IMG/VR virus record: IMGVR_UViG_2563366883_000001
Coordinates: 1 to 5,037 of that record
DNA from: a virus
Lineage: Duplodnaviria; Heunggongvirae; Uroviricota; Caudoviricetes
Strand: one strand, 5' to 3'
DNA length: 5,037 nt
A program made the position numbers and the translations under genes. Of the stretch, positions 3,022 to 4,993 are shown piece by piece; the first letter of the stretch is position 1, and each line of letters opens with the position of its first letter. The notes below the pieces were generated by a model, which had not been told where the DNA came from, ran no database searches, and was given only the letters and a program-made list of their open reading frames with translations.

Positions 3022-3926
3022 TCACTATTACCAAAGGGCGACTGCTGACAATCAAGCAGTGGCGCGAAACATACGGACCGGGTAGCAACGTTGTACTGCC
3101 AGCAGAAGAAGCGGAAGAACTGGCACGAATTGCACTGGTATCGCTGGAAGCAGAGCCGGTGGCAAAGATTATAGCTCATTACCCATTAGGAGTTGACGTA
3201 GGCAAACAAAAGTTCGTACAGGCCATTGGAGAGCTTCCTGACTTTGGCGGATATCTATTTGCCGCCCCGCCAGCGCCGGTAGTGCCGGAAGAAGCAACTC
3301 CGGAAAACGTAGAAATGCTCTCTGGCTATGTTTCCACGTACAAATTAACCGATAGCGAGCGCGATATTGCTGCCGAAATATGGAACGCCTGCCGCACCGA
3401 CATGCTTCAGTCCGGAAACTTTCGGGAAAGCAAGAATTCGTCAACCAATAATTTTCGGGAAATCCCGGAAGCGTCAACCAGCTCTCCGGTAACTCCGGCT
3501 CTTCTGCCTGGTGGTTTCACCATTGAGGAGGCGAAGGAATTACATGAAGACCTGGTACGCAGCCACATAAGCAAGGCCTTAAGTGGCGAAAAGATGAAAA
3601 AGAAAGATCGCGATGCTGATTTGCGCTGGATTCATGGCGTTATAGTTCAGGCAGCGTGGTTTGTAAAAGCATCACTGGAGCAGAATGCACTATCGGGCAA
3701 CTCTCCGGTAACTCCGGATGGTTGGATAAGCTGTAGTGAGCGAATGCCGGATGATGGTCAGCACGTAATTATTTTATGTGATGGCGCATTCGTTCTTTAT
3801 GCGCAATATCGAGACGGTGAGTTTTTTGATGTAGTCCGTAATGGTGATGAATTTTTCGAAACACAGAGCCGCAATGTAACCGACTGGATGCCGTTACCAG
3901 AACCGCCGCAGGAGGTGCGCCAATGA
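3018..3926 (+). CDS. DUF551 domain-containing mosaic phage protein
   Basis: C-terminus DGWISCSERMPDDGQHVIILCDGAFVLYAQYRDGEFFD...VTDWMPLPEPP matches the DUF551 signature (W-x-S...LP...THWMPLPEPP). SD AAGGAA at 3004-3009. Contains two in-frame 17-bp direct repeats, each encoding SPVTP. Confidence 0.8.
   Translation: MITITKGRLLTIKQWRETYGPGSNVVLPAEEAEELARIALVSLEAEPVAKIIAHYPLGVDVGKQKFVQAIGELPDFGGYLFAAPPAPVVPEEATPENVEMLSGYVSTYKLTDSERDIAAEIWNACRTDMLQSGNFRESKNSSTNNFREIPEASTSSPVTPALLPGGFTIEEAKELHEDLVRSHISKALSGEKMKKKDRDADLRWIHGVIVQAAWFVKASLEQNALSGNSPVTPDGWISCSERMPDDGQHVIILCDGAFVLYAQYRDGEFFDVVRNGDEFFETQSRNVTDWMPLPEPPQEVRQ
3482..3717 (+). repeat. Pair of 17-bp direct repeats (ctctccggtaactccgg) inside the DUF551 gene
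   Basis: Exact copies at 3482-3498 and 3701-3717, in the same reading frame, each encoding SPVTP. They flank a ~200-bp segment encoding a charged, helix-like module. Confidence 0.7.
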
Positions 3927-4006
3927 TCTGGCCTGAAGCATTTGCAATTACAGGCGTTGCTATGGCTATCGCTTTTTTAGTATATGTTATTTGTCGGTGT
4001 GGGTAA
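3923..4006 (+). CDS. Predicted 27-aa hydrophobic peptide (MIWPEAFAITGVAMAIAFLVYVICRCG)
   Basis: Not in the ORF track (too short). ATG 3923 overlaps the DUF551 stop (ATGA) and is preceded by GGAGG at 3911-3915 (7-nt spacer). Hand translation gives a single hydrophobic helix, stop TAA 4004-4006. Confidence 0.35.
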   Translation: MIWPEAFAITGVAMAIAFLVYVICRCG

Positions 4007-4041
4007 AAGCGTTCGCCGGGATTAACACCAAAGGAGGGAAT

Positions 4042-4146
4042 GTGTCGGATGATATCTCACTGGCAATGGAAGGTGCGCTGGCTGTTATTGCTGTTGTGGG
4101 TGTTTACTGCCTGGTTGTGTTTTTGATGGATCGACTAGGGAACTGA
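4042..4146 (+). CDS. Predicted 34-aa hydrophobic peptide (MSDDISLAMEGALAVIAVVGVYCLVVFLMDRLGN)
   Basis: Not in the ORF track. GTG 4042 follows AAGGAGGG at 4031-4038 (spacing short, 3-4 nt). Acidic N-terminus, one TM-like helix, charged C-terminus, stop TGA 4144-4146. A 28-aa peptide in another frame (ATG 4040..4126) uses the same SD; the start is ambiguous. Confidence 0.3.
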   Translation: MSDDISLAMEGALAVIAVVGVYCLVVFLMDRLGN

Positions 4147-4154
4147 ATTCATTA

Positions 4155-4176
4155 CGATATGGGAATTCCCATATCG
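4155..4176. repeat. 22-bp perfect palindrome cgatatgggaattcccatatcg centred on GAATTC
   Basis: Every position pairs across the centre at 4165/4166. Lies between the 34-aa small ORF and the predicted hok promoter. No U-tract on either side. Confidence 0.6.
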
Positions 4177-4187
4177 GGTAAAAACGG

Positions 4188-4216
4188 TTTGCGGTAAAGC
4201 GAGAGTTAAGTAGAAT
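4188..4216 (+). promoter_or_regulatory. Putative sigma-70 promoter of the hok/mok mRNA
   Basis: -35 TTGCGG (4189-4194), 16-nt spacer, -10 TAGAAT (4211-4216, 5/6 to consensus). The predicted start site near 4222-4224 coincides with the 5' segment that is complementary to the mRNA 3' end. Confidence 0.45.
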
Positions 4217-4234
4217 TGCTGCGGGTGCTTGAGG

Positions 4235-4270
4235 CTGTCTGCCTCGGGCATGCCACCGTAAGGCAGACAG
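4235..4270 (+). promoter_or_regulatory. hok mRNA leader stem-loop
   Basis: 10-bp perfect stem ctgtctgcct (4235-4244) / aggcagacag (4261-4270) with a 16-nt loop. Lies in the predicted 5' leader upstream of mok. Confidence 0.5.
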
Positions 4271-4277
4271 AGAAAAG

Positions 4278-4343
4278 CCCCAGTTAACATTATGCGTCTT
4301 GCAGGACGCTTAACATTAATCTGAGGCCAATTTCATGCTAGCC
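4278..4343 (-). ncRNA. sok: Predicted Sok-like antisense RNA (approximate bounds)
   Basis: Inferred from the antisense promoter and from the sokC/mokC arrangement I recall. Would be complementary to the mok start codon and SD (4321-4337). The minus strand has a small hairpin (plus coordinates 4294-4309) and a U-rich stretch from plus 4270-4278. Ends not determinable from sequence alone. Confidence 0.35.
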
Positions 4344-4547
4344 ACATGTAGGTTAGCCTCTTACACGCCGAAAGGCAAGGAGAAGCAGGCTATGAAGCAG
4401 CAAAAGGCGATGTTAGTCGCCCTGATCGTCATCTGTATTACCGTCATTGTGACGGCACTGGTAACGAGGAAAGACCTCTGCGAGGTACGAATCCGAACCG
4501 GCCAGACGGAGGTCACTGTCTTCACAGCTTACGAACCTGAGGAGTAA
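4335..4547 (+). CDS. mok: Mok-like regulatory reading frame (in-frame upstream extension of hok)
   Basis: 70-aa ORF from the track, MLATCRLASYTPKGKEKQA followed by the Hok sequence. As I recall, chromosomal Mok proteins such as MokC have this in-frame extended layout. GAGG at 4323-4326 lies 8 nt upstream of ATG 4335. Confidence 0.5.
   Translation: MLATCRLASYTPKGKEKQAMKQQKAMLVALIVICITVIVTALVTRKDLCEVRIRTGQTEVTVFTAYEPEE
4350..4378 (-). promoter_or_regulatory. Putative Sok antisense promoter
   Basis: On the minus strand: -35 TTGCCT (plus coordinates 4378-4373), 17-nt spacer, -10 TAACCT (4355-4350). Placed inside the 5' part of mok, where sok promoters sit in known hok loci. Confidence 0.35.
4392..4547 (+). 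CDS. hok: Hok/Gef family type I toxin, closest to HokD (RelF)
   Basis: 51 aa, MKQQKAMLVALIVICITVIVTALVTRKDLCEVRIRTGQTEVTVFTAYEPEE. From memory this is near-identical to E. coli HokD/RelF and very similar to HokC/Gef. AAGGAG at 4376-4381 lies 10 nt upstream of ATG 4392. Confidence 0.9.
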   Translation: MKQQKAMLVALIVICITVIVTALVTRKDLCEVRIRTGQTEVTVFTAYEPEE

Positions 4548-4615
4548 GAGACCTGGCGGGGGAGAAATCCCTCGCCACCTCTGATGAGTCAGGCATCCTC
4601 AACGCACCCGCACTT

Positions 4616-4642
4616 AACCCGCTTCGGCGGGTTTTGTTTTTT
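4616..4642 (+). terminator. Rho-independent terminator of the hok mRNA
   Basis: Stem aacccgc (4616-4622) / gcgggtt (4627-4633) with UUCG tetraloop (4623-4626), followed by the T-rich run ttttgtttttt through 4642. Confidence 0.8.
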
Positions 4643-4663
4643 CCTGGCATTCTGGTTTACAAT
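4634..4663 (+). promoter_or_regulatory. Possible sigma-70 promoter for the downstream gene
   Basis: -35 TTGTTT (4634-4639), 18-nt spacer, -10 TACAAT (4658-4663). Overlaps the terminator T-tract; weak evidence. Confidence 0.25.
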
Positions 4664-4714
4664 TCGCACGCCAGCCTGAACAACTGGCACCTGCTGCGCC
4701 AGCAGAGACAACCG

Positions 4715-4993
4715 ATGGCGCACGATACCAAATTATACAATTCTGATAATTCAGCCGTCTTTGCCAGCAGGCACGGGCGGCGTTCTCATGCATTCAAATC
4801 TGACAGGTTACAGCACGCCCCATGCACTGAAGAACAGGCCGAATGGCTGATTCAGAACTACCGCAGACGTGGGTATGAGTTTAGGAAAACCCTCAGCCTC
4901 GATTATCGTCACTGGATAATCTCCGTCAGGCTTCCTTACTCTGAACGCCCACCGCGTCCGTCCCGCACATTCCTGCAACGCATCTGGAGGTAA
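4715..4993 (+). CDS. Hypothetical basic protein (92 aa)
   Basis: ORF-track frame 4634..4993. The TTG at 4634 lies inside the terminator T-tract, so I take the first ATG at 4715 as start. Arg-rich, no motif recognised. Sits immediately downstream of hok in the same orientation, as rem does relative to hokD in the K-12 Qin prophage, but I cannot confirm homology. Confidence 0.4.
   Translation: MAHDTKLYNSDNSAVFASRHGRRSHAFKSDRLQHAPCTEEQAEWLIQNYRRRGYEFRKTLSLDYRHWIISVRLPYSERPPRPSRTFLQRIWR

Follow-up and report, generated by a model that had tools for sequence, protein, structure and literature searches.

A predicted Sok antisense RNA across the mok start of an intact hok/sok locus in a lambda-like Escherichia coli prophage

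Sok RNAs count among the textbook type I antitoxins; their founding member is the Sok RNA of plasmid R1 (parB). A preliminary description of the viral DNA analyzed here (a stretch of 5,037 nucleotides, in the following termed the window) proposed that such an antisense RNA is transcribed from the minus strand across the start codon of a mok reading frame. The locus raises the question of whether its minus strand encodes a Sok RNA, and between which ends this RNA would lie. Based on sequence, homology and predicted structure, we consider it very probable that positions ~4270-4343 (minus strand) encode a Sok-type antisense RNA, the antidote of a hok/sok system residing in a lambda-like E. coli prophage. 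The Sok antitoxin gene itself is already known and belongs to an experimentally studied subfamily.

The hok/sok module and its prophage setting

The window contains a complete hok/sok module consisting of hok promoter, tac, mok, hok, fbi and terminator. On the plus strand, a putative hok promoter with the -10 hexamer TAGAAT (4211-4216), predicted from the sequence, is followed by the tac element GGGUGCUUGAGGCU (4223-4236), which forms the hok mRNA 5' end according to the start of the Rfam model. Open reading frames were found for the hok toxin gene (4392-4547, 51 aa; Shine-Dalgarno sequence AAGGAG at 4377-4382) and for mok (4335-4547, 70 aa; Shine-Dalgarno sequence GAGG at 4323-4326), the latter being the in-frame upstream extension of hok from the ATG at 4335-4337. 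Mok in the window is Hok with an N-terminal extension, a frame it has in common with mokC of K-12, which is in frame with hokC (gef), and with mokW of 933W, also in frame with its hok gene, whereas mok of R1 overlaps hok out of frame. Positions 4597-4643 hold the fbi element CCUCAACGCACCCGC and, after it, the terminator of the hok mRNA; this intrinsic terminator was called by the terminator scan at 4616-4633 and has a T run behind it.

The full-length hok mRNA (4223-4641) folds with a z-score of -7.1. In this fold, the first 12 nt of the mRNA (tac, GGGUGCUUGAGG) pair with fbi (CCUCAACGCACCC, 4597-4611), two elements that the R1 locus has as well. The mok Shine-Dalgarno sequence pairs with a GCCCC box lying upstream, and this helix mirrors, on the plus strand, the Sok hairpin described below. 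It corresponds to the ucb pairing that has been described for R1 (PMC9841398).

The locus is also recognized by the Rfam family RF01794 ('sok') at 4223-4397 on the plus strand, with 117.3 bits against a gathering score of 59 and an E-value of 3.7e-27. The model, which represents the hok-mRNA strand, opens at the 5' end of this mRNA (tac) and closes at the hok AUG. In the K-12 sokC locus (our extract L002), for example, the match lies on the minus strand (402-554), and the annotated sokC ncRNA lies on the opposite, plus strand (453-511). The RF01794 match certifies a hok/sok leader or locus, not the antisense RNA itself, and since the model follows the hok-mRNA strand, automated Rfam pipelines would put Sok on the wrong strand.

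Several weaker candidates were discarded. A minus-strand match to the same family (4150-4281; 18 bits, E 0.79) was taken to echo the tac hairpin, which is nearly palindromic, a match to the snoRNA ceN48 (E 0.11) is attributed to chance, and a 51-aa minus-strand ORF (4135-4290) was judged spurious, as it begins inside the Sok hairpin and extends past the terminator. Separately, the plus strand shows a weak match to the isrK family at 4556-4637 (27 bits, gathering score 50, E 0.006). This match spans the hok mRNA 3' UTR with its hairpin, fbi and terminator, immediately before the DUF968/rusA/Q genes, and may reflect chance or a distant kinship of IsrK-type prophage sRNAs with hok 3' ends.

The same DNA is carried by E. 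coli genomes with an identity of up to 99.8%; matches were found in 4732/5426 genomes, with a median of two and a maximum of 11 matching places per genome. In the best-matching genome, the locus is situated inside a lambdoid prophage (nin region), flanked by DUF551 genes on one side and DUF968/rusA/Q on the other. These genes and the locus lie on one strand with the replication gene P. E. coli JE86-ST05 (NZ_AP022815, ~1,202,350-1,202,860) is an example of a strain with this prophage. The RefSeq/PGAP annotation at this position lists a 'hokD' CDS only, the name that PGAP gives to the CDS of the window, with neither mok nor an ncRNA. In the window, too, all genes from P through Q are on the plus strand, so that early rightward transcription of the phage runs head-on into the Sok promoter and might silence it upon induction.

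Further elements were observed upstream of the putative hok promoter. Two small hydrophobic ORFs lie directly upstream of hok on the plus strand, at 3923-4006 (27 aa) and 3991-4146 (at most 51 aa, annotated in RefSeq as a 34-aa hypothetical protein). Between the stop of the second ORF (4146) and the putative hok promoter, the window holds a perfect 20-bp palindrome, GATATGGGAATTCCCATATC (4156-4175), with no U run after it. The palindrome could serve protein binding or form a hairpin.

In E. coli K-12, a close relative of the window hok gene is found in the Qin prophage, where HokD (relF) is 94% identical to the window Hok. At the DNA level, K-12 hokD is 96.6% identical over window positions 4378-4641 (BLAST; NC_000913, positions 525-789 of our extract L004). 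The homology starts exactly at 4378, directly before the hok Shine-Dalgarno sequence, at the junction with relBE. Consequently, K-12 hokD is without the mok start, the Sok -10 hexamer and the Sok gene, and of Sok only the -35 hexamer is kept. Judged by this alignment, the K-12 locus (hokD/relF) is a truncated remnant, of which the window holds an intact counterpart.

The Sok promoter

On the minus strand, the hexamer TTGCCT (4373-4378), which overlaps the hok Shine-Dalgarno sequence (4377-4382), and the hexamer TAACCT (4350-4355) are separated by a spacer of 17 nt (4356-4372). The plus-strand letters AGGCAA (4373-4378) and AGGTTA (4350-4355) are their reverse complements, and the promoter-like element TTGCCT-N17-TAACCT that the preliminary description had read at 4378-4350 is indeed present. 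Past the -10 hexamer, the minus strand continues with ACATGT and then G4343, so that the predicted +1 lies 7 nt past the -10. The start had been proposed near 4343. G4343 agrees with the annotated starts of sokW and sokC (mok ATG+8) and with the geometry of R1, and an RNA starting there would cover the mok ATG (4335-4337) and Shine-Dalgarno sequence (4323-4326), as had been suggested.

The hexamers as such are not distinctive. A strict promoter consensus scan of positions 4100-4750 called no promoter, and the Sok -10 agrees with TATAAT at only 3/6 positions. A looser scan that admits the Sok site returned 50 sites in the window compared to 48±8 in shuffled sequences, which corresponds to chance. 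As the hexamer pair occurs at chance frequency, the case for a promoter rests on context and homology. This context greatly exceeds chance, as seen in the RF01794 match, the z-score of the predicted RNA (-5.4) and the base-for-base alignment of the element with annotated sokW and sokC.

By alignment, TTGCCT-17-TAACCT occupies the same position as the Sok promoters of R1, sokB, sokC and sokW. In K-12 sokB, the promoter TTGCCG-17-TAAGAT shares both the position and the 17-bp spacer. For R1, an R1-type hok/sok copy was located in NC_004998 (the query matched at 100%), and the 64-nt R1 Sok was rebuilt from the primers of Faridani et al. 2006 (PMC1635323). Its promoter TTGCGC-17-TATCCT matches the window in spacer and in position relative to the hok Shine-Dalgarno sequence, and its +1 lies 7 nt past TATCCT, as in TAACCT-ACATGT-G4343. 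The base-for-base alignment with K-12 sokC, a comparison that the preliminary description had called for, revealed the same geometry with a start at mok ATG+8, but a different promoter sequence (TTGACC-17-CACTCT). Across the family, the -35 takes the forms TTGCCT, TTGACC, TTGCGC, TTGCAT, TTGCCG and TTGCTT with TTGC.. conserved, and the -10 takes ten forms (TAACCT, TATCCT, TAATCT, TACTCT, TATTCT, TAAGAT, TAACAT, CATACT, CACTCT and CGAACT), among which T6 is found in 10/10 and A2 in 9/10; the spacer is 17 bp, occasionally 18. The window thus holds a predicted sigma-70 promoter at the conserved Sok position, with the -35 on the hok Shine-Dalgarno sequence, a ~17-bp spacer, a TAnnCT hexamer and a +1 ~7 nt further on.

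The closest studied relative is sokW, which represents the phage-borne subfamily, is annotated as a 71-nt misc_RNA in the GenBank records of 933W and VT2-Sakai (prophage Sp5) and was experimentally tested in 2021. It is identical to the window Sok in both hexamers and in spacer length. Takada et al. 2021 showed that HokW is toxic and that expression of sokW from its own promoter makes the locus protective; replacement of the -10 in sokW releases HokW toxicity, abolishing protection (PMC8621323). The primers for this 'pro-less' mutant (YO-421/422) change the plus-strand letters TAGGTTA to CCGGCTC, and the hexamer hit would be the counterpart of the window -10. Growth was partially restored by sokW in trans, the sokW RNA was detected on northern blots, and protection depended partly on RNase III and Hfq (PMC8621323). 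The probe of that study (YO-597) has only two mismatches to the window minus strand, both in the promoter spacer. Promoter, start and target in the window coincide with those of the studied homologues, and the earlier suggestion that the element lies where Sok acts in known hok loci fits this comparison.

In addition, we analyzed the variation of the promoter region among 58 unique leaders of the phage W/D subfamily, obtained from 80 IMG/VR loci and others. The Sok -35 shows zero variation (58/58 copies), the -10 has a single variable site that is changed in 4/58, and C4343 and A4344 are invariant (58/58); the mok ATG is present in 56/58 copies. This conservation is confounded, as the -35 overlaps the hok Shine-Dalgarno sequence and the -10 and spacer overlap the dcb of the hok mRNA; an overlap of Sok promoter and dcb has been noted for R1 (PMC9841398). 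Conservation alone is therefore no proof of promoter function. Partly offsetting this, the segment 4329-4334, with which the -10 segment pairs in the mRNA hairpin, varies freely among the 58 copies. The -10 side lacks this freedom, which implies that it is under an additional constraint.

These data also bear on a reading in which the locus makes no functional antisense RNA, the hexamers being a by-product of constraints on the hok strand (Shine-Dalgarno sequence, dcb and target-hairpin stem) or the site a decayed remnant. The chance frequency of the hexamer pair, the empty strict scan and the overlap of the Sok promoter with hok Shine-Dalgarno sequence and dcb would all fit this reading, and decay has precedents in K-12, where hokD is truncated and most chromosomal hok loci are decayed remnants. 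Nevertheless, we regard it as very improbable: in the window, mok, hok, tac and fbi are all intact, the counterpart hexamers drive a functional sokW, and the -10 side of the target stem is invariant with its partner (4329-4334) free to vary. The strand preference of the RNA fold, which is considered in the following section, likewise speaks for a Sok gene.

Ends and fold of the predicted RNA

By homology to sokW, sokC and R1 Sok, the window is predicted to encode a Sok RNA of 71-77 nt, 5'-GGCUAGCAUGAAAUUGGCCUCAG...CUGGGGCUUUUCUCUGU (4267-4343, minus strand). Its 5' end would be G4343, and its 3' end would fall at 4273 following the sokW annotation, at 4268 following the R1 geometry or at 4267 following the sokC annotation. 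We infer transcription of this allele, as well as its ends to within a few nucleotides, from analogy to these systems.

The segment 4267-4343 (minus strand) folds with -30.2 kcal/mol (z-score -5.4) into one stable stem-loop between a largely single-stranded 5' tail and a U-rich 3' tail. The 5' tail (4329-4343) lies over the mok ATG; in the minimum free energy (MFE) structure, nucleotides 1-5, 9 and 14-15 are unpaired and the rest is weakly paired with the 3' U tract. It is followed by a long, interrupted hairpin of ~21 bp (4277-4328) with the base GCCUCAG/CUGGGGC. In this fold, the GGGGC of the base is directly followed by UUUUCUCU, and the U-rich tract right after the hairpin base comprises UUUUCUCUGU (4267-4276). 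The family consensus past GGGGC reads UUU(U/C)U.CU.U. The apex of the hairpin is formed by GCGUC/GACGC (4294-4298 and 4305-4309) and belongs to an 18-nt insertion relative to sokC that is common to sokW.

The 3' end had appeared unclear in the preliminary description, in which the nearest hairpin (4294-4309) lacked a direct U run and a U-rich stretch was placed only further on, at plus 4270-4278 (minus strand GCUUUUCUC). Both the small hairpin without its U run and the U-rich stretch were seen at these coordinates. The puzzle is solved by the fold of the whole segment: 4294-4309 is only the tip of the hairpin 4277-4328, whose base adjoins the U-rich tract, and this explains the 3' end.

An alternative would be that Sok ends elsewhere, either at the small hairpin 4294-4309, giving an RNA of ~50 nt, or by read-through toward the palindrome at 4156-4175. 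For this it can be argued that the strict terminator scan did not call the Sok terminator, whose hairpin is long and bulged, and that the U tract UUUUCUCU is interrupted. The small hairpin, however, has no U run after it, and sokC, sokB and R1 Sok are without it and all end past GGGGC and a U-rich tract. Moreover, the base of the long hairpin directly adjoins UUUU. A different 3' end appears very improbable.

Comparison with these relatives reveals a conserved architecture with divergent details. K-12 sokC is annotated as a 59-nt ncRNA with tail, hairpin and UUUUCUCUAU as in the window, but it has no apical 18-nt insertion and a different stem sequence. Similarly, R1 Sok combines a single-stranded 5' tail for target-loop pairing with a stem-loop and GGGGC followed by a U-rich tail; it differs in being 64 nt long with an 11-nt tail and in being plasmid-borne, and R1 Hok is only 37% identical to the window Hok. 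The sokW RNA starts at mok ATG+8 and has the long hairpin with the 18-nt apical insertion and the same U tract. It is identical to the window Sok at 65/77 nt, and 7/12 differences fall within the first 16 nt, the recognition tail; the apical loop differs as well. HokW and the window Hok share 86% identity. The apical insertion is common to all 58 unique phage copies, which marks them as the sokW subfamily (phage-borne, long hairpin).

To compare the two strands, leaders of 72 hok loci from Enterobacterales genomes were aligned with nhmmer, and the Sok-equivalent segment was folded on both strands. The minus-strand fold is more stable in 47/48 distinct homologues, on average by 10 kcal/mol, although the sequences are related and the count overstates their independence. 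For the window, the z-scores are -5.4 (minus) and -3.5 (plus). The minus strand folds better because G.U wobbles turn into A.C mismatches on the hok strand. For example, a U.G wobble in the stem base was found in 24/26 sequences, which is an A.C mismatch on the hok strand, and 41/47 hairpins contain at least one G.U pair. The consistently greater stability on the antisense strand argues against the reading without a functional antisense RNA and is in line with a Sok gene. The 47 homologues comprise 32 distinct hairpin sequences with one architecture, sequences that are related and do not represent independent events.

For 26 diverse Sok sequences aligned with MAFFT, RNAalifold yielded no more than the 7-bp base of the stem, with a single compensatory pair. 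Between Sok subfamilies, the apical stems differ in length and register. Per-sequence folds and the strand-asymmetry test were used in place of a covariance model.

Target recognition and variation of the Sok tail

On the plus strand, the local fold and the Rfam consensus structure place a target hairpin at 4323-4360, in which the mok Shine-Dalgarno region GAGGC is paired with GCCUC (dcb). In the local fold, its loop CUAGCCA (4338-4344) holds a YUNR motif, CUAG, and Sok nucleotides 1-6 (GGCUAG) are complementary to this loop. The following regulatory mechanism is proposed by analogy to R1 and sokW. A sigma-70 promoter inside the mok/hok leader would start Sok at G4343, and the hairpin 4277-4328 with UUUUCUCU would terminate it, yielding the RNA of 71-77 nt. 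The Sok 5' tail would then make its first contact with the loop CUAGCC (4338-4343) of the mok initiation hairpin in the 3'-processed hok mRNA, and the duplex would spread across the mok ATG and Shine-Dalgarno sequence. This would block translation of mok and, via translational coupling, of hok, and RNase III would subsequently cut the duplex. With an unstable Sok and a stable hok mRNA, Hok would be made once Sok synthesis is lost.

Previous studies of R1 found that the Sok 5' tail recognizes the loop of the processed, refolded hok mRNA and that its binding blocks mok, and hence hok, translation, with cleavage of the duplex by RNase III (PMC1635323, PMC9841398). Repression of hok via mok by an unstable Sok, together with RNase III cleavage, is known for R1 and sokW only (PMC1635323, PMC8621323). 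The published refolding was not reproduced by MFE prediction for the hok mRNA of the window; both the full-length and the 3'-truncated fold keep the Sok target in an alternative helix. In this helix (4337-4357), GCUAGCC, the Sok target in mok codons 1-3, is perfectly paired with GGUUAGC of the -10 region. This 7-bp helix is completed by the window-specific C4342, a position that is A in 36/58 and G in 20/58 of the phage copies.

The recognition tail is also the most variable part of the gene. Among the 58 unique phage leaders, the Sok 5' tail shows a variability of 0.85 bits per site, reaching 1.2-1.9 bits per site at Sok nucleotides 2-6 (4338-4342; target loop, mok codons 2-3), compared to 0.06-0.11 bits per site in the hairpin arms. 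The leaders comprise 19 tail alleles, and the CTAGCC of the window occurs only once. The hypervariable stretch covers 4329-4349, and above all 4338-4342, flanked by a nearly invariant promoter and hairpin.

One explanation could be selection, in poly-lysogens, for toxin-antitoxin pairs that do not cross-react; relaxed constraint on the loop could equally account for the pattern. As a tentative suggestion, which we put forward as speculative, Sok nucleotides 2-6 would serve as a specificity cassette under diversifying selection against cross-protection among the co-resident hok/sok copies of poly-lysogens; in addition, transcriptional interference by head-on transcription could silence Sok on induction. 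For R1 hok and the chromosomal Sok RNAs, an absence of cross-talk has been reported (PMC9841398).

The role of the locus is a separate matter that leaves its identity unaffected. Instead of post-segregational killing, it may serve faster lysis and phage release on induction, or phage exclusion, and we consider this a real possibility. Takada et al. 2021 observed that mitomycin C leads to a RecA-dependent loss of sokW, that HokW precedes endolysin and that phage yield is halved without the hokW-sokW locus (PMC8621323). The window locus has the orientation of the early rightward operon P...Q, with its Sok promoter head-on, which would fit a role in lysis. The contexts differ, however: hokW is located at the right end of the phage (58.4-58.7 of 61.7 kb in 933W, 59.8-60.1 of 65.5 kb in VT2-Sakai), whereas the window locus occupies the nin region.

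As a discovery, the locus carries little weight, and its practical value lies in annotation, where mok and Sok are missing in RefSeq and the Rfam model follows the hok strand. The omission by RefSeq/PGAP leaves thousands of E. coli prophage copies without an annotated antitoxin. Beyond this, the hypervariable recognition tail provides a testable lead on the orthogonality of multiple hok/sok copies.
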